The position numbers were made by a program, and so were the translations under genes. Source: a virus. Taken from it: a DNA stretch of 64,000 nt. The notes beneath the pieces are model-generated. The model saw only the letters and a list, made by a program, of their open reading frames with translations. It was not told the DNA's origin and made no database searches. Of the stretch, positions 5,393-58,302 are shown in pieces (position 1 is the first letter of the stretch; each line of letters opens with the position of its first letter). The stretch lies in IMG/VR virus record IMGVR_UViG_3300020160_001428, positions 8,408-72,407 of that record; one strand, 5' to 3'.

Positions 5393-5872
5393 TTAGTTAC
5401 CTTTGGCTTCAGCAATCAACTGATCAAAGTCATTCTTTTGGATCTTCAAACGTACAAAGGTGTAGTGTTTCCCACTCATTGTAAACTGACCCATATCACG
5501 TTGCAAGTGCTTGCGAATAGCAGTATCTGCAACTTTGTAACTGATCACAGTTTTGGTTGTCTTCTTGTCGTTGATGATAGCAATCTCAGTTTCTGAGTTG
5601 ACTTTACCGTTAATGCGTTTGGCAAAGTTATTCATAGCCACAGCATACATCTGTTCTTCAGCGGCCTGCAAGTAAGCGGATTCGCCTGCGCCACAAGCAT
5701 ACGCATATTCTTTTTCCCACCAGAACCAACCTTCAGTACCTGCCTGGGCACAGTTTTTGTACCAATCAGGTTGAGCAAACGTTTTGCGTTCCTCAATAGG
5801 GGACAACGAAGAACATGCAGTCAACGAAACGATGCCTGCTACCAAAAGTGCCTTAGTTAAAATGCCTGTCAT
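5393..5872 (-). CDS. Putative lipoprotein (LPP20-like)
   Basis: Lipobox LTAC; PDWY...GAGES...A pattern. Confidence 0.7.
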   Translation of the reverse strand: MTGILTKALLVAGIVSLTACSSLSPIEERKTFAQPDWYKNCAQAGTEGWFWWEKEYAYACGAGESAYLQAAEEQMYAVAMNNFAKRINGKVNSETEIAIINDKKTTKTVISYKVADTAIRKHLQRDMGQFTMSGKHYTFVRLKIQKNDFDQLIAEAKGN

Positions 5873-7444: not shown

Positions 7445-7765
7445 TTAGACGCGAAACGACTCACCACACCCGCAACGATCGCGTTCATTTGGGTTGGCAA
7501 ATTCAAAACCCTCATTGAGTCCATTGCGAACCCAATCTACTTCTAGTCCTGATACATAGGCAAGACTCTTTGGATCAACGAATAACTTACAGCCCTTTGA
7601 TTCAAAACATTCATCTTCTGGATTTACGTTATCAACATACTCGAGTACATAAGCCAATCCACTACATCCGGTGGTTCTTACGCCGACTCTCAATCCGAGC
7701 CCTTTGCCCCTACGCTCTAACTGGCGTTGAACTTTTACTGCCGCGTGATCAGTTAACGATATCAT
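7445..7765 (-). CDS. iscA: Fe-S cluster A-type carrier IscA
   Basis: [23 protein letters not shown]. Confidence 0.93.
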
Positions 7766-8144
7766 GCTGTTTGGCCTTATAGTCTGCTACTGCGGCTTTT
7801 ATTGCGTCTTCGGCAAGAATTGAACAATGGATCTTAACTGGCGGTAGGGCTAGTTCTTCGGCAATTTCGGAATTTTTAAGCTCACTGGCTTTGTCGATGT
7901 GCATACCCTTGACCCACTCTGTAACGAGGCTCGAGCTCGCGATAGCCGATCCGCAGCCATACGTTTTAAATTTTGCATCTGTAATAATACCTGTATCATT
8001 GTCCACCTTTATCTGTAATTTCATTACGTCTCCGCAAGCAGGAGCTCCGACCATACCTGTACCAATGCCGTCTTCATCTTTACCAAATGATCCCACATTA
8101 CGCGGATTCTCATAGTGGTCTATTACTTTATCGCTGTATGCCAT
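7749..8144 (-). CDS. iscU: Fe-S scaffold IscU
   Basis: [46 protein letters not shown]. Confidence 0.96.
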
Positions 8145-8145
8145 T

Positions 8146-8706
8146 TTATCTTCCTTGTAATCGGTCATTTACGACTGACCAATCGATAATTCGCCAAATA
8201 TTTTCTAAATACTTGGCTTTATTTTGTTGATAGTCTAATGCCCACGCATGTTCCCATGCATCTATCAATAGAGCAATAGTCATGCCCTTTGTGTATTCGT
8301 GATTATGTATTGTATGTAACTTGCCACCTGGATCCATGTAAATCCAATTTGATCCTTGCGCGGCCATAAATTCTTTTTCTACTGCTTCTTTAAACTTGTC
8401 AAAGCTACCATAGGCCGCATCGATAAGTTCTGCACTATCGCCTGCGGGCTTGTTTGCGGCTCTTGCAGGAGTAAGTCCTGCAAAGAACAAGTTATGCAGT
8501 ACTGCGCCGCCGTAGTTAAACTTTGAGTCACCTTCACCTTTATTGTATCTTTCAAAATACTTTGCGGCCAAACCGTCAAAGTGATAGTTAAGAGTTGCTT
8601 CACTCATAACAGGATCTAACTCGTTCTTATCAAACTTTAATTTGCTTTGAACTAGTTCTCTGCCGTCAGCATCCTCTTTAAGATACTTAATAAAGTGCAT
8701 GGTCAT
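8146..8706 (-). CDS. Fe/Mn superoxide dismutase (divergent)
   Basis: LDPVMSEATLNYH, LHNLFF, DAWEHAW. Confidence 0.85.
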   Translation of the reverse strand: MTMHFIKYLKEDADGRELVQSKLKFDKNELDPVMSEATLNYHFDGLAAKYFERYNKGEGDSKFNYGGAVLHNLFFAGLTPARAANKPAGDSAELIDAAYGSFDKFKEAVEKEFMAAQGSNWIYMDPGGKLHTIHNHEYTKGMTIALLIDAWEHAWALDYQQNKAKYLENIWRIIDWSVVNDRLQGR

Positions 8707-9008
8707 ACTGAGAAGCTACTTCCACATCCGCACTTGGTCTGTGCATTTGGATTATCAATGCTAAAATTCGTACCCATTAGATCTTCAGTAAAGTCTAATG
8801 TAGCACCTTGGAGATACTGTGCGCTCATAGAGTCAACGATGACTTTTCCAAACTCAAAATCATCTTCATTTTTAGTTTGATCAAAGTCAAATGCATAGCT
8901 AAATCCGCTACAACCACCACCTTGAATAGCTATTCGTAGAAATGGCTCCTCATTTTCCACTAGAAGTTTTTCAATTTCTGCGTTTGCGTTTTCTGTAATT
9001 GTAATCAT
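8703..9008 (-). CDS. erpA: A-type Fe-S carrier, ErpA-like
   Basis: LRIAIQGGGCSGFSY, NPNAQTKCGCGSSF. Confidence 0.85.
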   Translation of the reverse strand: MITITENANAEIEKLLVENEEPFLRIAIQGGGCSGFSYAFDFDQTKNEDDFEFGKVIVDSMSAQYLQGATLDFTEDLMGTNFSIDNPNAQTKCGCGSSFSV

Positions 9009-11731: not shown

Positions 11732-11974
11732 TTAACCTTTTAATGTAGTAAAAAATGCTTCGTCTTTGTCTGCAAGTCCTTGAAAGCCGCCCGGCAATAG
11801 AACTCCGTCTTTAAAAATCTGGGGAACGCTACGTAGGCCTTGATCTACAAGGAACTCACGTGCTTCGGGTGCGTCTTCCATCTTAATCACTTTAAATGGA
11901 ACACCTTTGCTTTCTAATAGTGCTTTTGCTCTGTCACAAAATGGACAGTTGTTTTTTGAATATACTGTAATCAT
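11732..11974 (-). CDS. Glutaredoxin
   Basis: CPFC active site, RSVPQIF, GGF. Confidence 0.93.
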   Translation of the reverse strand: MITVYSKNNCPFCDRAKALLESKGVPFKVIKMEDAPEAREFLVDQGLRSVPQIFKDGVLLPGGFQGLADKDEAFFTTLKG

Positions 11975-34496: not shown

Positions 34497-34985
34497 ATGA
34501 CAGCAAAACCTGTATTAATGATTCATGAGATTACAGATGCAATTTTTAACTTGCCCCTAGCTGATTATCTGCTGACTTTTGATGATGGTACCCAAGATCA
34601 TTGGCAGTATTTTAAGCAAGTACGGGCTATTCCTACAGAAAAAATCTACTTTATCATTACCAATCGTATTGGCACAGCAGGATATCTCAATTTAGAACAA
34701 GTTAAACAGATGAGTTTAGATCCAATGACTACAATTGGTGGGCATAGTCACGATCACATTAGGTTAAACACATTTGACACGCTGGTTGAAAAAGTAGCAT
34801 ATATTAAACAAGACACTGAACAAATGATTAATTGGTTTAATGAGAATTTAGGATACTGTCCTAAAGCATTCTGTTTACCCTATAACGAAGATGCTGGCGG
34901 ACTATATGCCGCGTGGCTGAGAAATAAAGGGATTACTAGTATCTATGCTAGCGAAAGGACTGCCTGTGAGCATATACTTTCCTAA
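34497..34985 (+). CDS. Polysaccharide deacetylase (CE4/NodB-like)
   Basis: LTFDDG, GGHSHDH, LPY. Confidence 0.85.
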   Translation: MTAKPVLMIHEITDAIFNLPLADYLLTFDDGTQDHWQYFKQVRAIPTEKIYFIITNRIGTAGYLNLEQVKQMSLDPMTTIGGHSHDHIRLNTFDTLVEKVAYIKQDTEQMINWFNENLGYCPKAFCLPYNEDAGGLYAAWLRNKGITSIYASERTACEHILS

Positions 34986-35694
34986 TACGCCTGCTACCTT
35001 TATCCATGTTCCAAGGACCGGAGGCACTAGTTTTAAAAGTTGGGCAAAGACTAATATCCTATCTAGTCAAGAGCTACCATTGCCAGATTTTATCCCCAGC
35101 AACACAAATATAATTCCCAATAGACAACATCTCATATCTGTTTGGGGCGACTTGGGAACTGAGTTTGCATTTGTTCGCAATCCCTATGATCGACTAGTTA
35201 GTCTTTATCATTATATGGGTCAATGGGCTGAACAACGATTTGCAGATAACAAAAACAAATTAGCCACCGGTGTTGACTTTGTCAAATCGTTTCCATATCA
35301 AAGTAGTAATGCTATAACTGCTATACAAGATGATAAACGTCTAATTGATTATTATAACTTGGGCTTTGAGAATTGGCTCAACTCTGTGTTCCATAATAGA
35401 GATGATATCTACAGTAAAACTGGGCATGGTACAAGGCATATTATTGATCACTTTTGGCGAGGAGAAACTCAGCTAAGTTGGTTCAATGGTCAACTGCCCG
35501 ATGTCATTATAAAGACTGAAGAACTAAGCAGGCAATTTTATATTATACAAGATTTACTAAATTGCCATGTGCCACTGCCTATAGAAAATAGTAGCAGGCA
35601 CGATCACTATCAAGCATACTATAATTCATCTACAAAAAAACTAGTAGAAACAATATTTGCTGAAGACTTAGCCGCGTTTGAATACAAGTTTTAA
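34966..35694 (+). CDS. Sulfotransferase family 2 protein
   Basis: FIHVPRTGGTS 5'-PSB loop, FVRNPYDRLVSLY, EDLAAFEYKF; GTG start after AAGGA. Confidence 0.85.
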   Translation: MSIYFPNTPATFIHVPRTGGTSFKSWAKTNILSSQELPLPDFIPSNTNIIPNRQHLISVWGDLGTEFAFVRNPYDRLVSLYHYMGQWAEQRFADNKNKLATGVDFVKSFPYQSSNAITAIQDDKRLIDYYNLGFENWLNSVFHNRDDIYSKTGHGTRHIIDHFWRGETQLSWFNGQLPDVIIKTEELSRQFYIIQDLLNCHVPLPIENSSRHDHYQAYYNSSTKKLVETIFAEDLAAFEYKF

Positions 35695-39160: not shown

Positions 39161-39624
39161 GGTGCGTTATCCCATCCTAATCTTATAAATCTAACTCCAG
39201 TGTCCTGTAATCCATATTTGATTGTTCTAATAAATGAACGCCCTGTCTCTGGGGTAAACAAAGGAATGTCTAAGGCATTAGTGAGCAAGTTATCATCGTC
39301 AACTAAGTGCCCGCGACCGCAGATACTATAACAACCATTGTGCCCAGCATTAACAAAGATAATACTACCGTTATGTTCTGCCCAACCTTTAATATTGAGT
39401 TTGATTTGTTCGTATGCTTTATACAATACAAAGCCCGCAACTCCGTATATTATAACACGCTTTCCTTGACTTGCAAGGCCTGCCGCTATGTTAACCATAT
39501 TAGGTTCTTGTACGCCGCAGTTGATTATTTTATAGTTGCCGTCAGTCCACTTCCACATGTCTGCATGTAGAAAGTAAACTTCTCCTGGATAACGATTTAA
39601 AAATTTATGTAAAGTTGCTCTCAT
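39154..39624 (-). CDS. Transketolase pyrimidine-binding domain (stand-alone)
   Basis: INCGVQEPNMVNIAAGLA, YEQIK, FIRL. Confidence 0.8.
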   Translation of the reverse strand: MRATLHKFLNRYPGEVYFLHADMWKWTDGNYKIINCGVQEPNMVNIAAGLASQGKRVIIYGVAGFVLYKAYEQIKLNIKGWAEHNGSIIFVNAGHNGCYSICGRGHLVDDDNLLTNALDIPLFTPETGRSFIRTIKYGLQDTGVRFIRLGWDNAPW

Positions 39625-40885
39625 CTTCTAACCATTTATAGTATAGCGTTCCTCTGTGTATGTCAATTAGTTCTTGTGGGTTTACTGTGTCAGCTGGTCG
39701 AGCTACATCATCTCTAAAGCCAGATAATACATAATCCCACGCTTCCGCTGGAAATATATCAATTTCTTTACGATCCTCTACAGGGACGGTTTTGTAATGA
39801 TTCCAGTAGTCGTTGTCTCGTTTAGAATATTTGTAGTGGGCAATGATAAAATTCATTACGGAATCAAATTCATCATTTGTCTCTGCATTGTATTCATCTT
39901 CTTCAAGTGTGCCATTAATATATGCTGTTAATCTTTTTAGTGCAGAAGTTACCAAATATAATCCAGTTGATTCGATCGGCTCAATGAACGCAGACGCTAG
40001 TCCAATGGCAACTATATTATCTTTCAAGTGTATTTTGTTTCTGCCTGTAGTCATTGAAACAGATCCAATTTGATGCGGTTCTACAGTAATATGAAACTTA
40101 TCCTGTGCATACTTAATAAAATCATCCAATACATCGTATTTGCTGTCATGTACATATCCAATAGCTAGCTCAGTACCTAACGGAATATTCCATATCCAAC
40201 CATGCGGCATTGCTTTGAATATACTATATGGTTTACATTGCATTTCTTTATCAGTATATGCGTGTCTAAAGACCAATGCACGATTGTTTGGTATTTTATC
40301 TGCAATACTTACAAAGTTATCCGGCCATGAGGCTACATATCTCCCAAAACCAGTGCTATCAATAAGAAGATCACATGTTCCTTCTACATCTTTTAAAGTT
40401 ACAAATTTGCGTATAATTGTTAAATTAGGAATACTAGGCGCTAGTGTATCCATATAGGCTAACAGTTCAGTGGCTCTAAAATGCACAGAAATATCTTTGT
40501 ATTCTAAAATATTATCGGGTATCTTATCAGTTGCTATTATCTTATCTATACTTGAACTGTTGTACCTGTCAGTCTGTCCTACTCCAAACGGAAATGTAAA
40601 ACTTTCTCCGTTTTGATTAAAGTCTTGAAACTTAATTCCAAGTTTAAGTGTGCCATTACAGTGATTAATAACATCCTTGTGAGAGATGCCAAGATCGTTT
40701 AGAAATTGACTTACGTCTGGTATAAGAGCTTCACCAACCCCTATAGGTTTGTTCTCTTCGGGATATATCCAAGTAATTTCTTTGTCAGGATATTGCTTTG
40801 ACAAATAGAATGCTGTTAGGTATCCTGAAGTTCCTGCACCAACGATTGTAATTCGGTTAATGTTTCTATCTTTTTGTAATGCCAT
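39605..40885 (-). CDS. Flavin-dependent tryptophan halogenase-like protein
   Basis: VGAGTSG, IGVGEA, LKLGIKF, DSTGF, GWIWNIPL, IGLASAFIEPIESTG. Confidence 0.88.
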   Translation of the reverse strand: MALQKDRNINRITIVGAGTSGYLTAFYLSKQYPDKEITWIYPEENKPIGVGEALIPDVSQFLNDLGISHKDVINHCNGTLKLGIKFQDFNQNGESFTFPFGVGQTDRYNSSSIDKIIATDKIPDNILEYKDISVHFRATELLAYMDTLAPSIPNLTIIRKFVTLKDVEGTCDLLIDSTGFGRYVASWPDNFVSIADKIPNNRALVFRHAYTDKEMQCKPYSIFKAMPHGWIWNIPLGTELAIGYVHDSKYDVLDDFIKYAQDKFHITVEPHQIGSVSMTTGRNKIHLKDNIVAIGLASAFIEPIESTGLYLVTSALKRLTAYINGTLEEDEYNAETNDEFDSVMNFIIAHYKYSKRDNDYWNHYKTVPVEDRKEIDIFPAEAWDYVLSGFRDDVARPADTVNPQELIDIHRGTLYYKWLEDESNFT

Positions 40886-43236: not shown

Positions 43237-44068
43237 CCTGATTGTAAAAAAACAGGAACTGAGGTATAAAGCAAACAGCATTGCCCAATTTGACTTCTAC
43301 TACCTCCCCTTTAAATTTTCCAGTTGGATCACTTTTAGGAATAAAGTTAAATTTTGAATTCGTGTTCTTTAAAGCAGGAAGTGTTGTTGTTTTATATTTG
43401 GATTGTAAATGTAACAGTTCTATTCGTGTCATATGTTCTAATTTAGATTTTGAATCAGTGTCAATACTATCAAACTCTACGTTTTCGACCACTTGATATA
43501 GATCATCAACTTTGTTTAAAAATATTCCACTGCTAACTAATTCGTCAAATAGTTCTCGAGCTTCACTAACAGTAATAAACTCGTAGTCATTGTTGTAGAC
43601 AAAACTTTTAAAATAATCTAAGAGATCGTTAGAGGAATCAAAATGCTTGCGGGCAATTGCTTCTAAGTTATCAAATCTGTTTTGAAATTGCGTGTCTTTC
43701 CAGTCTTTCCATATAAAATCTAAGAAGTAATCTCGATTGCATGTCACACTGTCTGCCCACCATAGTCTATGAAATATAGTTCTTGCAAAACAATTGGCTT
43801 GGAACACAAATTCATTTAATTCCAAGTAAGCGCATTTATCTTTATACATGAGAGTTTCACAGATTATATCAAAGAATGGAACGTTATGTTCAGTTAGATG
43901 ATAGGTATTAATTTCATTGTGAGCGCATCTGGGTTTTATTTGATGTGTTGGATATCTACTGTTGAGATCAACTGCTCTTGCTGTTTTTATACCTTGTATA
44001 AAATTGACAATACTATTAAACTCAGAGCTTTCTAAGTATTCAGTAGTGTTTACGTTGTAAGGAGTCAT
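43226..44068 (-). CDS. Hypothetical protein
   Basis: 280 aa in operon. Confidence 0.65.
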   Translation of the reverse strand: MTPYNVNTTEYLESSEFNSIVNFIQGIKTARAVDLNSRYPTHQIKPRCAHNEINTYHLTEHNVPFFDIICETLMYKDKCAYLELNEFVFQANCFARTIFHRLWWADSVTCNRDYFLDFIWKDWKDTQFQNRFDNLEAIARKHFDSSNDLLDYFKSFVYNNDYEFITVSEARELFDELVSSGIFLNKVDDLYQVVENVEFDSIDTDSKSKLEHMTRIELLHLQSKYKTTTLPALKNTNSKFNFIPKSDPTGKFKGEVVEVKLGNAVCFIPQFLFFYNQVDN

Positions 44069-49078: not shown

Positions 49079-49940
49079 TTAATAACTTTAAAAATTCATC
49101 GTTAGGTAATAAGGTCGTGCCTATTAGTCCGTCTTTTTTTCTTACCTCAAGAGCACAATCATAATAATCTATATCATATATTACATCTTTGCCGTAATGC
49201 TCACATTCTAATATGAACCGACTGGAGCAATCGAAGTGTCCAGGAGTTCTAGTGTATATGTATGTACTAAATTTGTTCCACATATTATCAATCGGTACTA
49301 GATGCACATTATCTAACGAATACAAGTTAGTATTATTAGTTAGAACAATGTTTTTTTCAAATCCGTGTTTTTTTATTAAAGATTCTAGTTCTATTTGAGG
49401 AATTTCTCTACAAAGGTCAGTAAGATAAAACATTGCCGCAATCTCTGAAACTTCGAGCAATGGTTTATACTTAGAAAATAGTATTTTCTTTTTATAGTTT
49501 ACTAACATTAAATCAGGTACACAATCTCCGTAGATTTCAAAGTCCTGTAACAAAAATATATTTGATTTTGTTTTAGTATAGTATGAAAAATCAGACTCAG
49601 AACAACGAAATAGAAATATGTTTTCAACAAGTAAATCTGCATTCTTTAATCTAGGACTGCCGTCAACAACTAAAAGATTCTTAGCAATTATAACCTTAGG
49701 AGCATGATGCTCTATTATATCATCTACAGTTAAATTATCGTATTTTTGGTTAATTGCATTAATAAATTCTTGTTTAGTTGTACCGTCCGATAATAATATG
49801 CAGGGTTTTAATTTAGTATATTCTTTAACTGCATAATAGTAGTCAATCATTTCAAACATGTGGCCACACACTCCAAATTTAAATTCAAATGAAGTTGTTA
49901 GTACGAGATCATAGGATTTTAAATTTACAATGTTGGACAT
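49059..49940 (-). CDS. Hypothetical protein, possibly GT-B-like
   Basis: C-terminal DCSSRFILECEHYGKDVI resembles a GT-B nucleotide-binding segment. Confidence 0.55.
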   Translation of the reverse strand: MSNIVNLKSYDLVLTTSFEFKFGVCGHMFEMIDYYYAVKEYTKLKPCILLSDGTTKQEFINAINQKYDNLTVDDIIEHHAPKVIIAKNLLVVDGSPRLKNADLLVENIFLFRCSESDFSYYTKTKSNIFLLQDFEIYGDCVPDLMLVNYKKKILFSKYKPLLEVSEIAAMFYLTDLCREIPQIELESLIKKHGFEKNIVLTNNTNLYSLDNVHLVPIDNMWNKFSTYIYTRTPGHFDCSSRFILECEHYGKDVIYDIDYYDCALEVRKKDGLIGTTLLPNDEFLKLLNEQIKC

Positions 49941-50722
49941 GTGATTTCCTGTAGAGATAACGGTTGGTAATCTAATTCATCAAACAAACTAGAAGGCAAC
50001 TGTTCTGCAATTTCTTGAGGAATGTCTAATCGATTATTTGGCAATATTTTTTTAAAATTATCTGCTAGACAGTTGAATTGATCTACATCTAGCGGACTTA
50101 GACTACACATGGGCATTAGATTATGATATTCATCTTGAGTTAATATATTATTATAACTTCTATAGCATGACAAATCAATAGATTGATTGCCAATTTGAAT
50201 CATTTTAGTTTCTAAAATATTTTCAAATTTAACTGTTTGAACAGTTGGCATCTGTTTTAATATGACGGATTGTATAAGAGACGACTCATTACGTTGTTTT
50301 AGCAGTTTGACGCCGGCTGTTGTATTATAGGGTGCCGAGTCTTGAGTAATAGAATCAATAGTATATATTGCTGACGGATTGCGAGTTATATTGATCGCGC
50401 ATACGCTGTCAATATCACTAGTAACCATATTGACAAATGTTTTAGAAAAACTTCCGCTAATGACTAATATTGGATATGGTCGATTATGGTACTGAGATAG
50501 AAAGGCCGTGTAGTCACCACCTTCTGGAAATACTGTATCTGTTTTAACACCAAAGTCAGTCCAGATGGCACGGAACTGCATTTTTAATTGATTATTAGTA
50601 TTATTATCTAATAGTTCTTGGTAATTATTGTCAGTGTGTTTGATCGAGTTTAAATGCTGTGTAATAGTCCAAGCGATGGTGGCTTTTTTAATAGTCTCCG
50701 ACCCGCTTAGGATAATTAACAT
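49925..50722 (-). CDS. P-loop/sulfotransferase-like protein, paralog of 50728
   Basis: ILSGSETIKK, INITRNPS, VKFENIL. Confidence 0.55.
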   Translation of the reverse strand: MLIILSGSETIKKATIAWTITQHLNSIKHTDNNYQELLDNNTNNQLKMQFRAIWTDFGVKTDTVFPEGGDYTAFLSQYHNRPYPILVISGSFSKTFVNMVTSDIDSVCAINITRNPSAIYTIDSITQDSAPYNTTAGVKLLKQRNESSLIQSVILKQMPTVQTVKFENILETKMIQIGNQSIDLSCYRSYNNILTQDEYHNLMPMCSLSPLDVDQFNCLADNFKKILPNNRLDIPQEIAEQLPSSLFDELDYQPLSLQEITCPTL

Positions 50723-50727
50723 GATTA

Positions 50728-51780
50728 TTAGTCGACAATGTCGTCATACGTTAACGGCTCGTATCCTAGTTCAGTAAACAAATTTTCTGGCATGTTTGCG
50801 GATATGACAGCTTTAATTTCAGATATTGTTGCTGGCGTAGATCTTAACGAATTAATATAAGTCGTAATCTCTTCGGTTATGTTAGGGCTTTGACCAGACG
50901 CATAATGTTGTAATTCTATATTAATTGCATCTAATGTTTCTGCTGATATAATTTCTAAAGGTATTAAGTTTTCATGTTCCCATTGTGTCAGCACACTATT
51001 AAAATTATCGTACCCTGCTGGCACTGTAACTTCAACACCATTAACTGTAAATTTACCAGCTGTAATAATGTCTTCAAATCTAATAGTAGTAATATCATCA
51101 AATTTAGCTAATACGGCGGCGTTGGCAATTGAGTAAACTAATTTTCTAGCATCTAATTCAGGAGTTCTATTTTTTTCAGGATTTGCATAGTATGCATCGT
51201 CTTTACGATTTAATAAAATGCAAGTAGACGGATTGCGGATAATGTTTATCACCGTAACATTCTCAGCCCCAATATCAGTTCTTACACTGTTAATAAATGC
51301 TTTAGAAAATATACCAGTAATAACATGTACGTCTCCCAGTCTATTTGCATAGTTTGCTAATACATCAGCATATGAGTGAGGATGTAACAATGGAATTTTT
51401 GGTGAACTGTTTCCGTAGTCAACCGTGTCTGTGATACCAAAATCGTGTGCGAGATCAATAAAGAAATTGCTAAAATGATTATTTCGACCACCTGTTAAAA
51501 ACAAGTTATCGTTTAGTTCTAGAATTTTGTCAAATATTGCATTACCTTCTAGATCAATTACTCCGTCGTTATCTAAATCGATCAATAACTCGTTAGTATG
51601 CGGTTGATCACCGATAGCCGGGGAATATACTACTTTTCCCGTAGGGTCTGTTACTCTAAATGGCTCAATGGAAAAATCAACAGTATGTCCATCGACTACA
51701 AACCTATTTAAGGCAGCAATTATCTTTCTTGCAAAAAACTTTTTGTGTATAGTTTCTACACCACTTAAAATTACTAACAT
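50728..51780 (-). CDS. P-loop/sulfotransferase-like protein with DxDxDG motif
   Basis: ILSGVETIHK, INIIRNPS, IRFEDII; DLDNDGVIDLE. Confidence 0.55.
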   Translation of the reverse strand: MLVILSGVETIHKKFFARKIIAALNRFVVDGHTVDFSIEPFRVTDPTGKVVYSPAIGDQPHTNELLIDLDNDGVIDLEGNAIFDKILELNDNLFLTGGRNNHFSNFFIDLAHDFGITDTVDYGNSSPKIPLLHPHSYADVLANYANRLGDVHVITGIFSKAFINSVRTDIGAENVTVINIIRNPSTCILLNRKDDAYYANPEKNRTPELDARKLVYSIANAAVLAKFDDITTIRFEDIITAGKFTVNGVEVTVPAGYDNFNSVLTQWEHENLIPLEIISAETLDAINIELQHYASGQSPNITEEITTYINSLRSTPATISEIKAVISANMPENLFTELGYEPLTYDDIVD

Positions 51781-51782
51781 AG

Positions 51783-52193
51783 TTATCTCCTTAAATAGTC
51801 TTGTATAACGGCGTTGACTGCATTATCATCATTATAATCAGTTAACATTTGAAGTTGATTTATTACAGAAGAATATTCATTTTTATTCTTCTCAATTTCT
51901 TTAATATTATCTTTTAATGTAAGATATTTTTCAAGATTGTTAATTAAATTCTCATCGCCTGTTTCAATAATTTTAATATAACACTCTTCTTTGTTACTAT
52001 CAGTAATGATAATTCCTTTACTGATAAATTCATTGTTTAATAACATAAAAGAAACAAAGTCAACTAATGTAAACGATAATAAATTATCTCCCATAATACC
52101 GCGTACTTTGGTTTTGACTGCTTTCGCGGCTTTACCTGCATAGGTACTAGCATCAATTCCTTCTACTTCTTCATAATTAGTGATTTCTTTCAT
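51783..52193 (-). CDS. Hypothetical protein (cluster accessory)
   Basis: 136 aa directly after the S74 ORF. Confidence 0.7.
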   Translation of the reverse strand: MKEITNYEEVEGIDASTYAGKAAKAVKTKVRGIMGDNLLSFTLVDFVSFMLLNNEFISKGIIITDSNKEECYIKIIETGDENLINNLEKYLTLKDNIKEIEKNKNEYSSVINQLQMLTDYNDDNAVNAVIQDYLRR

Positions 52194-52443
52194 TTTTTAA
52201 CCTTTCAATTTCGTCAGATAATTCTTGTACTGCTTTGATCAATGGAAAAATTAACTGATGCGGATTAGCTACAATAAAGTATCCGTCTCGATCTTTTTCT
52301 AAAATAGTGTATTTTTCTATTGGCCAAATTTCATTTATATTCTGTGCCATACAGCTCATAGTTTTTCTTACTGTATCACCTTTAGTGTTGTCAGTATATA
52401 TATGCTCTGCAGGTCTTAGCTGTTTTATTTTCTCTAAACTCAT
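52177..52443 (-). CDS. Stand-alone C-terminal part of an S74 (intramolecular chaperone) domain
   Basis: LEKIKQLRP...MAQNINEIWP...LIFPLIKAVQELSDEIERLK; TAATG overlap with upstream gene. Confidence 0.75.
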   Translation of the reverse strand: MSLEKIKQLRPAEHIYTDNTKGDTVRKTMSCMAQNINEIWPIEKYTILEKDRDGYFIVANPHQLIFPLIKAVQELSDEIERLKNERNH

Positions 52444-53087
52444 TACATATACTCAATTTCAGTTTTAACTTGTTCATCGCTATAGTTGCAATTACAGGTA
52501 CATGAGTAATTGCAGTTACAGGTGCAGTAGTTGCAGTTACATGTGCAATAGTTGCAGTTACAGGTGCAGGCGATCCTAGAGTCATTAATTTGATTTACTA
52601 AGGAATTTATATGAACAGCTCTAATCTTTGATCCAACTAATGCGGCAAATGATGTTGCATTGCTAACTGCGGGCACCTGTGGATAGGTTATAGTTTCCGG
52701 TTGTGGGACTGGACCATATACTGGTATCTGGTTGCCAGTCGGGTTTCCGTAAGGATCAAGTTCTGGAGTATAGCCAACTACTACTTGCCCGTTAGGACTA
52801 TTGATATTCTGGTTAGCTCCATTTTGTGCTGTTGTTGCCGCTGGTCCTGCAACGCTTACAGCAGTAATAATAGTGTCTAGGCGGGCCGCTGAAACTGTTC
52901 CCGAGTAATAGCCGGCAGGTATAACGATATTAGATTGGCCTCTTCGAACTCTTTCATTGATTGCAGCCTGAAAAATGCCAGCCATGGCTGAGCCACTAAT
53001 AGTAGTGCTAGTTCCAACGTAGCCGCCGATGTACCCTAGAGCATTTGATGCGTTGGTTCCGTAAACGTTTGCAACTAAACTTGCCAT
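52443..53087 (-). CDS. Cys-rich repeat protein 3 (candidate radical SAM substrate) with S74 cleavage stub
   Basis: Ends CTCNCNYCTCNCNYCTCNCNYSCTCNCNY-SDEQVKTEIEYM. Confidence 0.85.
   Translation of the reverse strand: MASLVANVYGTNASNALGYIGGYVGTSTTISGSAMAGIFQAAINERVRRGQSNIVIPAGYYSGTVSAARLDTIITAVSVAGPAATTAQNGANQNINSPNGQVVVGYTPELDPYGNPTGNQIPVYGPVPQPETITYPQVPAVSNATSFAALVGSKIRAVHINSLVNQINDSRIACTCNCNYCTCNCNYCTCNCNYSCTCNCNYSDEQVKTEIEYM
52482..52568 (-). repeat. 21-nt tandem repeat encoding (CTCNCNY)x4
   Basis: Four units with synonymous variation. Confidence 0.95.
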
Positions 53088-53093
53088 TTATAA

Positions 53094-53927
53094 CTACTCC
53101 ACCTCAAAATTAATTGGTAATTTTGAGTAGTTAACAAAATAGTATCCGTCTAGGTCTTTACCTAGAGCACATTCGTATTTGGTGCCTTGTAGTTCTTGAG
53201 CCATTACTCCACGATAGCGAGTCGATTTATCTTTGATATAGTTCCAAGAATAAACATTTAAATTATTTTCAACTTTAATAAATTTGATATTTTCTTTTAA
53301 TCTTATATCACTACCATAATTACAATTACAGGTACATGCATAATTGCAGTTACAGGTGCAGTAGTTGCAATTACAGGTGCAGTAGTTGCAATTACAGGTG
53401 CATACAGCGCCGGCAGAATTAATAGCACTAATTAGTGTATTAATATCTACAGAACTTATCCGTTGGTCTTTACTGAACGATGTTCCAACTGACGGCGCCG
53501 GTGATTGTGGATAGGTTATTACTTCTGGAGTAGGTACTGCGGCGTATGTTGGGGTTGAACCAACTACATTTCCGTAACCGTCAAGGATCGGAGTTGAACC
53601 TGTTTGTACTACTCCGTTAGAACTATTGATATTCTGATTAGCTCCGTTATATGCTTGACTGGCCGCTGGGCCGGCCTGCTGAACTGTTGTAATAATCTCT
53701 TGAACCCTAGCCCCTAATATTTTTCCACTAAAATAACTTGCCGGAAGTTGAATTGCTGAGCCGCCGCGGCGACTTCTTTCTGCAATGGCTTTATTTGCTA
53801 TATCAACTAATTTGTTTTCTCGCATTACGTCAGTAGATAACACGCCGGCCAGGTTATGAGTTACGGCATTAGTGGCATTAGTTCCGTATATACTTTTAGT
53901 CAGTCCCGAAAAAGTTGGTAATGCCAT
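53094..53927 (-). CDS. Cys-rich repeat protein 2 with fused S74 chaperone domain
   Basis: (CTCNCNY)x4-G-SDIRLKENI...YSWNY...GVMAQE...VNYSKL. Confidence 0.88.
   Translation of the reverse strand: MALPTFSGLTKSIYGTNATNAVTHNLAGVLSTDVMRENKLVDIANKAIAERSRRGGSAIQLPASYFSGKILGARVQEIITTVQQAGPAASQAYNGANQNINSSNGVVQTGSTPILDGYGNVVGSTPTYAAVPTPEVITYPQSPAPSVGTSFSKDQRISSVDINTLISAINSAGAVCTCNCNYCTCNCNYCTCNCNYACTCNCNYGSDIRLKENIKFIKVENNLNVYSWNYIKDKSTRYRGVMAQELQGTKYECALGKDLDGYYFVNYSKLPINFEVE
53316..53402 (-). repeat. 21-nt tandem repeat encoding (CTCNCNY)x4
   Basis: Four units. Confidence 0.95.
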
Positions 53928-54500
53928 TTACATGTACTCCACTTGACTTTTAAGTTGTTCATCGCTATAGTTGCAGTTACAGGTACATGAGTAATTGCAG
54001 TTACAGGTGCAGTAGTTGCAATTACAGGTGCAGTAGTTGCAGTTACAGGTACATACAGCACCAGCAGTATTAATTTCTGTAATTAGTGCATTGACAATAG
54101 CACTAGTTATTCTTTGGCCGGCTATAAAGTTTCCTGAGCCGCTAGGAACTGCTACTTGACCGTAAGTAGTTATTGCTGGAGGATTGCCACTATTAGCGCC
54201 ACCTCCATAATTGGTATTGTATGCTTGACTAGTTGCGGGTCCTGCAATTTCTACATTAGTTTTAATTTCTTGAATTTTGCTTGCAAATAATCTACCAGTA
54301 TAATAATTAGAAGGAATAGCAATTGCCGAACCACCGCGACGTGTTCTTTCTGAAATAGCTTTTTGTGCTATATTGTAAAATATTCCGCCAGACATCTTAT
54401 TTGTGTTATTGACTTGTGTAAGTCCATGAGATACTGAATCGCTGGCGTCAGTACCGTAGATGTCTTTTACTAATCCCGATGTTATATTTGGTAACGCCAT
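53928..54500 (-). CDS. Cys-rich repeat protein 1 with S74 cleavage stub
   Basis: Ends (CTCNCNY)x4-SDEQLKSQVEYM; AAGGAGA/GGAG RBS. Confidence 0.85.
   Translation of the reverse strand: MALPNITSGLVKDIYGTDASDSVSHGLTQVNNTNKMSGGIFYNIAQKAISERTRRGGSAIAIPSNYYTGRLFASKIQEIKTNVEIAGPATSQAYNTNYGGGANSGNPPAITTYGQVAVPSGSGNFIAGQRITSAIVNALITEINTAGAVCTCNCNYCTCNCNYCTCNCNYSCTCNCNYSDEQLKSQVEYM
53967..54053 (-). repeat. 21-nt tandem repeat encoding (CTCNCNY)x4
   Basis: Four units. Confidence 0.95.
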
Positions 54501-54512
54501 CGCTCCGTCTCC

Positions 54513-54911
54513 TTAAATTGCTTTTGATAAAAAGTCTAAATCTTCTTTAGCTTTATTCTGTGCTAGAAATTTGTCATAGTCGTCAAGATCAGCAGTTGAT
54601 GTAATAAAATCTAGTGTGTTCTTATCAACCTCCTTGTCTGGCATTTCTTGATTTTCATTCATATCTTTGATAATCTGCATGACTAAATCAGTTAACGATA
54701 TACCTAAAATAGAAGTGACCATTTCTATTTGTTTAGAAATATCAACAGTTTCAACTGGTTCAGTTCTTTCAGACATTTCTTTGATAATGTTCATAGATAG
54801 AATAAATCCATCTAGCATAATTGTAGAAACTCCTGGTTCATCTTCAACTTCCATAAGGTTGATAATCTCTAGGATTTTTTCTAATTTTTCGTTTATTGTC
54901 ATCTGAGTCAT
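54513..54911 (-). CDS. Acidic helical hypothetical protein
   Basis: 132 aa, ATGA-coupled to the rSAM gene. Confidence 0.7.
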   Translation of the reverse strand: MTQMTINEKLEKILEIINLMEVEDEPGVSTIMLDGFILSMNIIKEMSERTEPVETVDISKQIEMVTSILGISLTDLVMQIIKDMNENQEMPDKEVDKNTLDFITSTADLDDYDKFLAQNKAKEDLDFLSKAI

Positions 54912-55780
54912 TTTATTTCTTTGTCCTTAAAATCATGAAATTTTGGAGAGTTTTCGTAGTTACCGTAGGTCGTTACATTACCCTCGTTAGTAAAATATGT
55001 CTTCAATTCTTTGCGTTCACCACAACCATTGCACATGTCGCAAAACAATTCGCATACAGGTACAGATACTGCTTTATTTATCCAGTCATTTCTAAGCTGA
55101 TTTTTAATCTCGGTTAGCTTTTCGATGTCCTTTGGGGTTAGTGTATCCCAGGCCACACTAGTGATCATGCGCTCTGGATTAAAAGTTTTTATCAATTTGG
55201 TCATGTCTTTATACACATGGTTGATATTAAACTTATGTATGGTATAACGCATACGATATCTAAACTTGTTTTTTACTAGATTAGTAAAGACTTCAATCAT
55301 ACTTCTAGTACTGTCCATACCATTATGATATACCCGATCCTTGTTGCCAATTCCGTCAAAGCTAACATCTATTGATAACAGTCCCTTTTTATAAAAGAAG
55401 TTGTTCATTGTTTCATCAATAAAGTTTTGACTTAGGTATTTGATACCGTTGGTTGTCATGTTAAAATGTACATTACGTTTCTTACTAAAGGCATAGTCCA
55501 TAGCAAAGCAGACGTTCTCCCATTCTAGCGTAGGTTCGCCGCCAAACAATACAATTAGTGTTTGGCTTTTAGGATCTTCTCTAGCAAGTATTGCATCTAC
55601 ATGGTTGACAATATCTTCTTTGGTTAGTATCTGTGGCGGTCGGCCTGGTAAGTCTTCGTAACAATACGTGCAGGCTAGATTGCATTTATTAGTAAAGTAT
55701 AGAACGTTAACAGCCGAACCTACAGGGGCAGGTTTGTCTGTCTTATCTCCTACAAAAAAATCACTAACAATTGGTATCAT
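54908..55780 (-). CDS. Radical SAM protein with short Cys-rich tail
   Basis: CNLACTYC, FGGEPTL, TTNG, SFDG; CELFCDMCNGC. Confidence 0.92.
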   Translation of the reverse strand: MIPIVSDFFVGDKTDKPAPVGSAVNVLYFTNKCNLACTYCYEDLPGRPPQILTKEDIVNHVDAILAREDPKSQTLIVLFGGEPTLEWENVCFAMDYAFSKKRNVHFNMTTNGIKYLSQNFIDETMNNFFYKKGLLSIDVSFDGIGNKDRVYHNGMDSTRSMIEVFTNLVKNKFRYRMRYTIHKFNINHVYKDMTKLIKTFNPERMITSVAWDTLTPKDIEKLTEIKNQLRNDWINKAVSVPVCELFCDMCNGCGERKELKTYFTNEGNVTTYGNYENSPKFHDFKDKEIK

Positions 55781-56070
55781 TGAATAATCATCTCATGCGA
55801 GTTTTTATATCTATTTTCTTGTGGACGACTTTTGGCTTCTTTAATAATGTGACTCATACTAGATAAGAATTGTCCATAGTCAAATTTATAGTCGTATAAG
55901 TGTCCGCGATTAAGATCGTCATAGCCAACGTATTGGCTGTCTACTTTTGCTTTGCCTTTACGGGCTTCTTCAATTTGCAGTGACAATTCATCTACAGACA
56001 ACACACGATCTGAAACGTGCTCTACTGGAGCCATCTCAACTTTAACTGGAATCTTTAAAATGCTTTTCAT
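55777..56070 (-). CDS. Small hypothetical protein between rSAM genes
   Basis: 97 aa, translationally coupled on both sides. Confidence 0.7.
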   Translation of the reverse strand: MKSILKIPVKVEMAPVEHVSDRVLSVDELSLQIEEARKGKAKVDSQYVGYDDLNRGHLYDYKFDYGQFLSSMSHIIKEAKSRPQENRYKNSHEMIIQ

Positions 56071-57194
56071 TAGTTTCTACACTCCACACCTTCATTTTCT
56101 ACACCCACGTTTTGTAAGTAGTGTAGAATTAGATCTTGAAATACTGGAACATCTTTACATTCTTCTACAACACGCATGGCCTGTTCGTTAGTGATGTGAA
56201 AGATTTCGCAGATGCTGTCTAGGGGTTTGTTGCCGTTGGTAACTTGACTGTATGTACAGCCTGCATTACAAACTTGTTTTAATTGGCAAGGCTCGCACTT
56301 ATTAAAGTTTTGTGGATTGAAAATGTCTTGATAATAGTTGAAGTCATATTCACTGTCCATCTTCATAATCTTTTTACTAGCAAAGCGAGCACACGGATAG
56401 AACTCACCACTACTCATTAATACTCCGCCATGAGTACCAGCAAAGCAACCAAATGGTCTCTTACCTTTAACTAGACCGTATAAGATGTCTAGGATAGACA
56501 AACGTAGGAAGCCAACTGAACAAGGTATGCCTGCTTTTAGTTTGGCAATATAGCAGTCAGTTAATCTGATAAGTTCTCTACGAAAATCATGTAGGTCATC
56601 TTCTGTCCATACATCATCACGCACAATAGAAAAGTCAGGATGTTCAATGCCCCAACTTAACAAGAACTCGAAGTTCTCAGTCATGTCTTTGGTATTCCCA
56701 GGCCATATCATTACCTTACAGCCGTTGGTTAGATCTGTAATGATGTCCTTCTTGTGGTTATACATGTCAAGGATGCCATCAAACAACTCTCCAGTCTCTG
56801 GATTAGTGTTTTCTAACAATGGCAGTAAAGGACGAGTAGTATTAGAACTCATGCCGTCAAACGACCAGCTGACTCCTACTCCGTGTTCTTTTAGATACTT
56901 GGCTTTGTCTGCATCAATCATTGTTAGGTTAGTAATAATGTTAATGCCTTTGCATCTTGGATCGGCTGTTAGCTTAGGCACAGCATAGGTAATTAGATCC
57001 CAATTGAGCAATGGCTCACCACCAAAGAAGCTGACATGAAACTCGCTGTCATTACTGCGCTTCATTAGATTATACAGCTCTGGCATAGCATTATCAAACG
57101 TCTCAGGTTCCATCCATGTAGGACGGTTGGCCACGTAACAATATGGGCACCCAAGGTTACATTTTTCAGTTACTGATATCTCTAGTGTAAACAT
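56070..57194 (-). CDS. Radical SAM/SPASM protein (peptide/protein maturase type)
   Basis: CNLGCPYC, FFGGEPLL; CFAG...YPC...CEPCQLKQVCNAGC...IC. Confidence 0.93.
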   Translation of the reverse strand: MFTLEISVTEKCNLGCPYCYVANRPTWMEPETFDNAMPELYNLMKRSNDSEFHVSFFGGEPLLNWDLITYAVPKLTADPRCKGINIITNLTMIDADKAKYLKEHGVGVSWSFDGMSSNTTRPLLPLLENTNPETGELFDGILDMYNHKKDIITDLTNGCKVMIWPGNTKDMTENFEFLLSWGIEHPDFSIVRDDVWTEDDLHDFRRELIRLTDCYIAKLKAGIPCSVGFLRLSILDILYGLVKGKRPFGCFAGTHGGVLMSSGEFYPCARFASKKIMKMDSEYDFNYYQDIFNPQNFNKCEPCQLKQVCNAGCTYSQVTNGNKPLDSICEIFHITNEQAMRVVEECKDVPVFQDLILHYLQNVGVENEGVECRN

Positions 57195-57195
57195 A

Positions 57196-58302
57196 TTAGA
57201 CTGTACATTGCTCCGCTTTAATAACGATAGTTGGTTTCTTGTATGTCTTTAGAGCAGTACGTAGAGCATGGTGTACAATCTCGTTTGACTTAAAGACTTT
57301 ACATACTTGCCAATTGGCAGTATGGTCACTCCACTTTTCCAAGTAAGTATCTTTCTCTGACTTTTCGTATGTGGCCGCATTACACTTCATACAGAATTGT
57401 GCATCGCAACTCATGCAGTCAAGTGGTTGATTCTTTAGTGCGTCTTTGTACATTGCTGTCTTTTCTGCAATGAGTGCATCGATGTCTGGTGCCTTAAGAA
57501 TATTGCCCATAACGTGTGCATGACTTTCTTTGTACATACAACCGTGGCATGGACTAATGTCGCCGTTAAGGTCAACCGATACATAGTTAATACCAGATGC
57601 ACATAGGGCACGGCTTTGAGTGAACCAACCAAACTTTTCTGGAGGTAGTTTGTTTAGATAAATGTATTTGGCAATCTTAGCAAGTCCTTCATTAAGTACT
57701 GCTAGTCTAGGCATAAACTCTTCTTCAGTTAAATGACTATACATGTCCGGTGTTGGAAAATAGTTCTCATCAAACTGTAACACATCAAGGAACGCTTCGT
57801 AGATTAAGTGGAAGTGTTCAGCAGTTAATACTGATTTCATTTTAACAGCTAGGCCTGCTTGTTTTGCCGCAAGGTAGTTTGATTTAACTAAACTTGAACT
57901 TGGGTTACCTGTCTTATCTATACGTGTGATATCGTTTACTGGCTTGCCGTCATAGCTAACCTGTATCTTCAGCCTACCTGGCATTGCTTGATGAAAGCGC
58001 ACTAGCTCTTTCATATATTTCTTTAGATACACACCATTGGTATAAAAGAAAAAGTTGTAGTTAGGATTGTCAATGTACTTTTCCATCACGCCACGGCAGA
58101 ATTCCCAATTTACAAACGGCTCGCCGCCCCAAAAGTAAATATCTCTCTTTGGGTCTTTAAACTTGCCCATAAACTCTTCAATGTTCTCTAAGGTCACAGA
58201 AGTATTTTCTTCGTAGGCTGTTGAAAGCCCGCATTCAAATCCTTCTGAGCAATAGGTACATGCTAGATTGCAGGTACTGGTTACGTTTAAGTCAATTACC
58301 AT
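57196..58302 (-). CDS. Radical SAM/SPASM protein
   Basis: CNLACTYC, WGGEPF; CASG...PCHGC...CMSC..FCMKC...VC. Confidence 0.93.
   Translation of the reverse strand: MVIDLNVTSTCNLACTYCSEGFECGLSTAYEENTSVTLENIEEFMGKFKDPKRDIYFWGGEPFVNWEFCRGVMEKYIDNPNYNFFFYTNGVYLKKYMKELVRFHQAMPGRLKIQVSYDGKPVNDITRIDKTGNPSSSLVKSNYLAAKQAGLAVKMKSVLTAEHFHLIYEAFLDVLQFDENYFPTPDMYSHLTEEEFMPRLAVLNEGLAKIAKYIYLNKLPPEKFGWFTQSRALCASGINYVSVDLNGDISPCHGCMYKESHAHVMGNILKAPDIDALIAEKTAMYKDALKNQPLDCMSCDAQFCMKCNAATYEKSEKDTYLEKWSDHTANWQVCKVFKSNEIVHHALRTALKTYKKPTIVIKAEQCTV

Follow-up and report, generated by a model that had tools for sequence, protein, structure and literature searches.

A peptidase S74/C-terminal intramolecular chaperone domain is encoded in two pieces in the stretch of viral DNA analysed here, which covers positions 8,408 to 72,407 of the IMG/VR record IMGVR_UViG_3300020160_001428 (64,000 nucleotides (nt); hereafter the window, to which all coordinates refer unless another record or locus is named). 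The first 12 residues of the domain, including its putative catalytic Ser and Lys, form the C-terminus of short cysteine-repeat proteins; we refer to this segment as the tag and to the proteins as clients. The rest of the domain corresponds to a separate open reading frame (ORF) of 88 codons, ORF88, which we call the body. This split is genuine, and it is both conserved and maintained by selection. We consider it probable that tag and body constitute a naturally split S74 module that works between polypeptides, by trans complementation, with one body gene most likely serving one to four tagged clients.

The array is transcribed from the minus strand and, as read from the ORF list and the sequence, comprises three paralogous genes that follow one another without a spacer, and then ORF88 and ORF136:

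54500..53928, minus strand: protein 1, 190 residues, client paralogue with Cys repeat and tag, preceded by a GGAG ribosome-binding site
53967-54053, minus strand: four CTCNCNY repeats of protein 1
53931..53966, minus strand: tag of protein 1, 12 residues, SDEQLKSQVEYM
53927..53094, minus strand: protein 2, 277 residues, paralogue with a full but short cis S74 domain (residues 206-277) instead of a tag
53316-53402, minus strand: four CTCNCNY repeats of protein 2
53087..52443, minus strand: protein 3, 214 residues, client paralogue with a client body that has no fold match, Cys repeat and tag
52482-52568, minus strand: four CTCNCNY repeats of protein 3
52446..52481, minus strand: tag of protein 3, 12 residues, SDEQVKTEIEYM
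52441..52445, minus strand: TAATG stop-start overlap of protein 3 and ORF88, seen in the sequence
52443..52177, minus strand: ORF88, 88 residues, predicted free-standing S74/CIMCD body, beginning MSLEKIKQLRP
52193..51783, minus strand: ORF136, 136 residues, with a 17-nt overlap with the end of ORF88

Tag, body and the register between them

Protein 1 ends in SDEQLKSQVEYM, followed by TAA and immediately by the ATG of protein 2, and protein 3 ends in SDEQVKTEIEYM, followed by TAA; the longer C-terminal stretches are ...CTCNCNYSDEQLKSQVEYM in protein 1 and ...CTCNCNYSDEQVKTEIEYM in protein 3. The initial annotation of this locus, made from the sequence alone, had pointed out that both proteins stop at the same place just past the cleavage site, and its coordinates and strings were exact (the Ser codon of the protein 3 tag starts at 52481). 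It had also described an ORF beginning MSLEKIKQLRP that is entered via TAATG, as is indeed the case: the last A of the protein 3 TAA is the first base of the ORF88 ATG, which places ORF88 in the -1 frame relative to protein 3. The tag follows the pattern SD-x3-K-x2-[IV]EY[MIL]; in protein 3, Ser203 is the putative nucleophile, at which the chain would also be cut, and Lys208 would act as general base. One further match to this pattern in the window, at 43333, is not accompanied by the repeat and looks like a chance occurrence.

The register of the domain was taken from 36 cis homologues, in which S1, D2, K6, G15, L16 and P24 mark the start of the domain and Ser and Pro are 24 residues apart. 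The tag occupies positions 1-12 of this register and the Met of ORF88 position 14, so that exactly one residue is missing, and the one-residue join EYM-V-MSLEK that had been proposed for the two pieces is in S74 register. This one-residue gap suggests that the split arose through a one-base change that created TAATG at an internal Met. Both members of the catalytic pair remain on the client side of the cut. For T5 pb1, the part of the structural report consulted gives a scissile Ser1264 with Lys1269 (S-x4-K spacing), a loop at 1265-1276 and the first hairpin from 1277 (PMC4690869); set against that structure, the natural cut falls at the boundary between loop and globular body.

ORF88 consists of helix 1, two beta-hairpins, an MAQ motif and a long C-terminal helix (LIFPLIKAVQELSDEIERLKNE). 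The Ser-x4-Lys that starts an S74 domain is absent from it and present on the client tags, and the AQ and [LI]xAVQEL motifs of S74, which had been read in ORF88 as AQ and LIKAVQEL, are found in the ORF88 family. Residues 2-41 align to positions 16-54 of the 58 positions of the Pfam profile PF13884 (E 0.0085; 16.8 bits, with the cut-off at 22 bits), the score being weak because the first 15 profile positions are missing. A profile built from 42 free-standing relatives matches the solved S74/ICA chains 8jov (E 1.8e-5), 3gud of phi29 (3.2e-5) and 7dc3 of MyRF (2.5e-4), and more weakly 8hqz of T5 pb1 (0.012) and 3gw6 of K1F (0.038). Tail-fibre families of PHROG match ORF88 via their extreme C-termini (best E 8.9e-5). 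The AlphaFold2 model of ORF88, obtained with a 52-sequence alignment, has a predicted local distance difference test score (pLDDT) of 92.6 and contains helices at residues 3-7, 33-39 and 61-87 and strands at 11-14, 28-31, 48-50 and 56-58. When this model was compared with the PDB using Foldseek, ranks 1-10 were all ICA/CIMCD chains (7dc3, 3gw6 and 3gud), with 7dc3 on top (query-normalised template modelling score, TMq, 0.72; E 1.8e-3; probability 1.0) and probabilities of 0.98-1.0 for 3gw6 and 0.87-0.92 for 3gud; the E-values of these ten matches range from 1.8e-3 to 0.2, none being below 1e-3. On the strength of this model, ORF88 is predicted to have the S74/CIMCD fold. Its homologues form 27 clusters with 67-97% identity, of which 26 are 83-94 residues long and one is a 57-residue fragment.

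Conservation of the split and spread of free-standing bodies

The related loci comprise 14 from IMG/VR and metagenome contigs, with L001 and L012 being one contig present in two collections. The tag, its TAA and the TAATG leading into an ORF88 homologue are found in the window and in all 14 of these loci, with the position of the stop unchanged; the comparison of homologous loci that the initial annotation had recommended yielded the same split in 14 of 14 and no continuous ORF. The number of tagged genes per array varies, from one (L015-L017) to three (L005, L009 and L011) and four (L001), and both the window and L008 contain two tagged genes and one cis gene. The notion of a two-piece domain shared by two substrates was borne out by the two tagged genes of the window, and in the relatives it extends to between one and four tagged paralogues per body. 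The 30 tags from 15 sources are encoded by 23 nucleotide versions, in which S1, D2, K6, E10 and Y11 are invariant, the Ser codon is AGC, AGT, TCC or TCG (two codon families) and the stop is always TAA. Counts for the client family refer to the best 120 of 638 homologues of protein 3. Among these, 84 end in the 12-residue tag, and the 50 distinct tags share invariant S, D, K and Y; Ser and Lys are thus retained without exception, in 23 of 23 nucleotide versions and in 50 of 50 distinct tags. Because synonymous variation is accompanied by conserved protein sequence, both the tag and ORF88 are under purifying selection. The stop codons give no reason to assume a different genetic code: those closing the region's genes are all ordinary, and each tag runs into TAA and then a start. 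No relatives in cultured phages were detected among 50,697 phage records by megablast of positions 50000-56000 or tblastn of protein 3, searches in which the low-complexity filter may hide the repeat, and no RNA data were present among the 19 runs listed for the sequence.

The most conserved part of the clients is a CTCNCNY-CTCNCNY-CTCNCNY-x-CTCNCNY block located just before the S74 site in each paralogue, which varies little or not at all across 84 family members; nothing was found in the literature on the CTCNCNY motif. Tag and cis domain are interchangeable forms at this position. Protein 2 carries a cis S74 domain without the terminal helix (PF13884, E 1.9e-7; 31.7 bits, above the 22-bit cut-off), and 27 of the 120 best homologues likewise have a short cis S74 domain of ~72 residues, lacking the terminal helix, in place of the tag. 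The cis domain of protein 2 (53094-53312, minus strand) stops just past ...YSKLP. The counterpart of protein 2 in L008 (2640-3356) ends in ...FEVEYM and a stop, and the window version is ended by TAG at ...FEVE; the L008 ending looks as if a cis cassette had entered an older tag and left its last residues, VEYM, behind it. The number of repeat units varies as well, one protein (P0290) having 12 units followed by a short cis S74 domain. In the AlphaFold2 model of protein 3, residues 11-175 are confidently predicted, and residues 179-214 have pLDDT below 50. Searched against PDB and BFVD, the fold of the protein 3 body drew no match at E <= 0.001; in the ESM Atlas it matched only its own kind (0.93) and a cluster bearing PF13884 (0.86), the latter being a lead only.

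A distant record, G001, was found through locus L021. Its CTC[NQ]CNY protein ends in SDRRLKTEIEYM and a stop at base 519, and its ORF88-like gene (31% identity) has a separate start, at base 5529, with the reading frame closed by a stop 8 codons before it. Tag and body are therefore 5 kb apart in this record, with several genes between them, including a radical SAM (S-adenosylmethionine) gene. The repeat protein of G001 (L098 1-519) has ~11 units, with CTCQCNY variants preceding CTCNCNY, and a 266-residue gene between tag and body is sulfotransferase-like by eye, with no tool match. In G001 the pairing of ORF88 with ORF136 is kept although the tagged gene is 5 kb distant: ORF136, whose family is phrog_25260, matches the C-terminus of the 304-residue protein that follows the ORF88-like gene (L021 2781-3695; 48% identity over 89 residues, E 1e-18). 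Tagged clients and ORF88 homologues occur together in every locus seen of both lineages.

Free-standing bodies extend well beyond these loci. At E <= 1e-3, an exhaustive profile search returned 192 proteins; those ranked 1-30 are all 73-102 residues long, and fused C-terminal forms appear only from about E 1e-7. Of its 128 near-full-length matches, 48 are standalone (defined by a Met start just before the first helix and no S-D-x3-K), 76 are cis and four are unclear. On a tree built from 86 columns and poorly resolved, the standalone label requires 9 changes, compared with a mean of 38.6 for shuffled labels (0 of 500 shuffles as low), and well-supported branches force at least two label changes. 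Free bodies thus appear, from these sequences, to be a persistent state with few origins. An alignment-based locus search returned long cis ORFs at 79 of the 80 best IMG/VR loci, and a scan with the L021 ORF found 36 cis loci and a standalone body only in the record of L021 itself. Searches with single proteins found no loci that would give the DNA context of the standalone proteins P0178 and P0030, and a degenerate start-motif pattern for standalone bodies had 0 matches.

A proposed two-chain module and its alternatives

Residues 150-214 of protein 3 in three copies were modelled together with three copies of ORF88, each protein with its own alignment, and the interface was scored by the interaction prediction score from aligned errors (ipSAE), the mark for which had been calibrated on solved complexes (reached by 58 of 80) and mismatched pairs (2 of 110). 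This is the trimer of stub and ORF88 that the initial annotation had suggested modelling, and it scored 0.68 (runs 0.65, 0.68 and 0.69), compared with 0.00 for the best of three controls. The runs had at least 74% of contacts in common, with an ORF88 pLDDT of at least 83, and the confident client interface was exactly residues 200-214 in all three copies. In the predicted complex, tag residues 207-213 run antiparallel to residues 10-17 of one ORF88 subunit, Asp204 contacts residues 33 and 55-56 of ORF88, and Met214 contacts residue 70 of another subunit, so that each tag bridges two ORF88 copies in the model.

These observations can be combined into a mechanism in which each client would retain only positions 1-12 of the domain (Ser1, Lys6 and a short strand, x-[IV]-E-Y-[MIL]), with the last gene of the array supplying the other ~88 residues as a protein of its own. 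Given the UAAUG overlap, ORF88 is probably translated by termination-reinitiation. It would form a trimer via its C-terminal helix, whereupon the S74 fold would be restored by three client tails docking through beta-strand addition, each of them spanning two ORF88 subunits. Docking would set the register of the three chains and nucleate the folding of the Cys-repeat end, and the Ser/Lys pair of the tag would then cut between Tyr202 and Ser203, so that the mature client is set free, as is the ORF88 trimer, which may then serve again. Binding, trimer nucleation, cleavage and recycling are steps that we infer. A module split in this way falls outside the definition of S74 as intramolecular, with the fold and the catalytic pair kept.

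The initial annotation proposed that the body is either supplied in trans or rejoined to the tag by a frameshift. Trans supply fits the evidence much better, and little is left of the second option. A programmed -1 frameshift would rejoin the protein 3 tag and ORF88 into a cis-S74 protein of ~302 residues, with the free 88-residue product minor or absent, and the perfect S74 register of the -1 reading EYM-V-MSLEK agrees with it and suggests that a single-base change in a once continuous gene gave rise to the split. The junction in the window and the related loci has no slippery heptamer (X XXY YYZ); it reads G-TAT-ATG-TAA, G-TAC-ATG, A-TAC-ATA or G-TAT-ATA, and its third codon positions drift. 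A TGA lies in the ORF88 frame four codons ahead of the ATG, leaving three codons for a shift, and the 106 nt downstream have no marked RNA fold (z -1.11, with 22 of 200 shuffles as stable). In the internal paralogues, moreover, the tag and TAA are followed by the ATG of the next paralogue, which makes fusion to ORF88 impossible for those tags; the most telling point is that 5 kb separate tag and body in G001. A search of 38 longer-protein candidates found none fused to an ORF88 homologue at E <= 0.01, which is weak evidence. We regard a frameshift as very improbable. Still less credible, to the point of being negligible, is that a sequencing or assembly error, or a recent pseudogene, broke a continuous S74 gene in one record. 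The frame change does amount to a single base, and nothing else favours this explanation, whereas the same junction is found in the window and 14 of 14 related loci, ORF88 homologues form 27 clusters, and the synonymous variation described above implies selection on both pieces. Logan contigs from four runs also have 0 substitutions and 0 indels over both junctions, these runs coming from one study and one of them possibly being the source of the record. The earlier argument against a sequencing error, drawn from the identical stops, is thereby reinforced: the conserved junctions, the tag variants and the identical run contigs refute such an error.

A more serious alternative is that tag and ORF88 are no longer linked, the tag being a follower peptide for the maturases or an assembly or degradation signal and ORF88 a free trimeric coiled-coil module for another protein, such as ORF136. 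This would account for the position of the G001 body, 5 kb from the tagged gene and directly before an ORF136-like domain, for the conservation of tag and Cys repeat as one block beside PapB-like maturases, and for the tagless ends of 8 of the 120 best family members. It offers no reason why the residues held invariant in the tag should be exactly S1 and K6, which form the S74 catalytic pair at the S74 spacing, together with D2, nor why the tag should end one residue short of the ORF88 start in S74 register; also against it are the interface of the complex model, which is confined to the tag, with controls at 0.00, and the finding that each locus seen of either lineage combines tagged clients with ORF88 homologues. 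We therefore consider it unlikely, if much less so than a frameshift.

Several points weigh against a split module acting in trans. The ORF88-like gene of G001 adjoins the ORF136-like domain and not the tagged gene, and the primary partner of the body could accordingly be another protein. ORF88 alone scores under the Pfam cut-off. The client part of the complex is poorly modelled (pLDDT 43-45), and the complex score may reflect memory of solved cis S74 structures; as such structures exist, it shows that tag plus ORF88 resemble an S74 domain, not that they bind. Binding of tag to ORF88 is suggested by one structure prediction, and removal of the tag by the conserved Ser/Lys pair. Among the 120 best client homologues, eight end at the last repeat or one residue past it and have no tag, and in one a Cys replaces the tag Ser (CDEQIKTEIEYM); some of the eight may have been cut by contig ends. 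The tag is thus not indispensable for every paralogue. The standalone labels of distant bodies come from gene calls, DNA context having been seen for two lineages only. Finally, we know of no published evidence for S74 acting in trans.

The tagless and Cys-variant proteins listed are P0255, P0298, P0238, P0280, P0297 and P0195. For P0255 and P0298, the longest contig has 166,727 bases, the same as for a tagged paralogue and an ORF88 homologue, and all four may lie on one contig.

Gene neighbourhood, known systems and significance

The genes directly upstream of the array, and the other genes of the window considered in relation to them, are the following:

54911..54513, minus strand: acidic ORF, 132 residues, preceding the array
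54908..58302, minus strand: three radical SAM/SPASM genes and a 97-residue ORF, directly upstream of the array
54908-55780, 56070-57194 and 57196-58302, minus strand: the radical SAM genes (Pfam Radical_SAM)
7448-9008, 11735-11974 and 319-2187: Fe-S assembly, superoxide dismutase, glutaredoxin and Hsp70 genes

The best NCBIfam match of all three upstream enzymes is the PapB-family ranthipeptide maturase (E 1.7e-24, 1.1e-37 and 9.5e-18), with PapB-family scores of 130, 86.7 and 64.5 bits, far below the 340-bit equivalog cut-off. All three also match other thioether-forming SPASM enzymes below the equivalog cut-offs, and one has a SPASM domain match of 30.7 bits (cut-off 27). Judged by sequence, this arrangement looks like cross-linking of a phage structural protein via its CTCNCNY repeat, in the style of ribosomally synthesised and post-translationally modified peptides (RiPPs); a literature search for radical SAM enzymes with Cys-rich fibres in jumbo phages found nothing. 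In total, the window encodes eight radical SAM proteins, two IscA-like proteins, one IscU/NifU-like protein, an Fe/Mn superoxide dismutase, a glutaredoxin and a full Hsp70, and the Fe-S assembly, redox and Hsp70 genes are plausibly a support system for the eight radical SAM genes. A further-reaching and tentative proposal, which we consider more likely wrong than right, is that the 12 residues act as a portable, self-removing trimerisation tag, so that ORF88 would fold whatever protein bears them, starting at the C-terminus, that ORF88 has turned from a single-use cis domain into a reusable, multi-turnover body shared by a growing family, and that the clients are cross-linked at CTCNCNY by the PapB-like enzymes with support from the Fe-S genes, giving a RiPP-style virion protein with its assembly timed by the split chaperone.

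The window also contains a ribonucleotide reductase, a cell-wall hydrolase, many sugar-modifying enzymes and a PAAR-like motif (26.4 bits, just under the 27-bit Pfam cut-off). A tryptophan-halogenase-like flavoprotein, a sulfotransferase and nucleotide-sugar enzymes occur in a cluster (39608-40885, 34945-35691 and 49928-51780), together with two paralogous genes of 350 and 265 residues that have no family match. The source record is a 72-kb virus contig with an estimated completeness of 21%, and ORF88 homologues lie on contigs of up to 346 kb; the source is probably a large freshwater phage.

S74/CIMCD domains, also named IMC or ICA, include those of K1F endosialidase (3GW6), T5 pb1 (4UW8 and 8HQZ), phi29 gp12 (3GUD) and the MyRF ICA (7DC3). 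To our knowledge, every S74 domain described so far is contiguous with the chain on which it acts, and does so only once; our searches turned up no paper on an S74 domain that is split or works in trans. The module described here resembles them in the predicted fold of ORF88, in the S-x4-K at the start of the domain, in the AQ and [LI]xAVQEL motifs and in its position at the C-terminal end of a client expected to trimerise. It differs in being cut after residue 12, with the catalytic pair on the client and the body a separate gene product, and in having one body for one to four clients, 5 kb away in one relative. Separately encoded tail-fibre chaperones are known from T4 (gp38 and gp57A) and as Tfa of Mu and lambda, and fibre chaperones encoded by separate genes have reportedly been described in an Alteromonas phage, as 'transient chaperone caps', and also in Pam3. 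Like ORF88, these are small proteins from a gene just downstream of the fibre gene, needed (presumably, for ORF88) for trimer folding from the C-terminal end and absent from the mature fibre or transient on it, whereas they are unrelated to S74 in sequence and fold, show no autoproteolysis and have clients without a cleavable tag. Split inteins in 'fractured genes' are self-processing modules divided into two genes and offer an analogy only: fragments complement each other before the chemistry, and one fragment is very short, but the fold and the chemistry are different, with hydrolysis after chaperoning proposed here and not splicing.

S74 is defined as intramolecular, and no natural example that bears on the need for a covalent link to the client was found in the literature searched. 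Here, nature's cut sits at a structurally sensible place and has been kept through deep divergence and gene duplication, and two small genes make a simple system for asking about trans action and turnover. If the body does act in trans, the tag would provide a 12-residue, self-removing means of producing trimeric fibres. For annotation, the 48 standalone proteins among the 128 near-full-length matches are a caution that 'hypothetical proteins' of 85-100 residues near fibre genes may be free S74 bodies. For the phages themselves, a shared chaperone gene would explain how small fibre-like genes can be multiplied and diversified cheaply.

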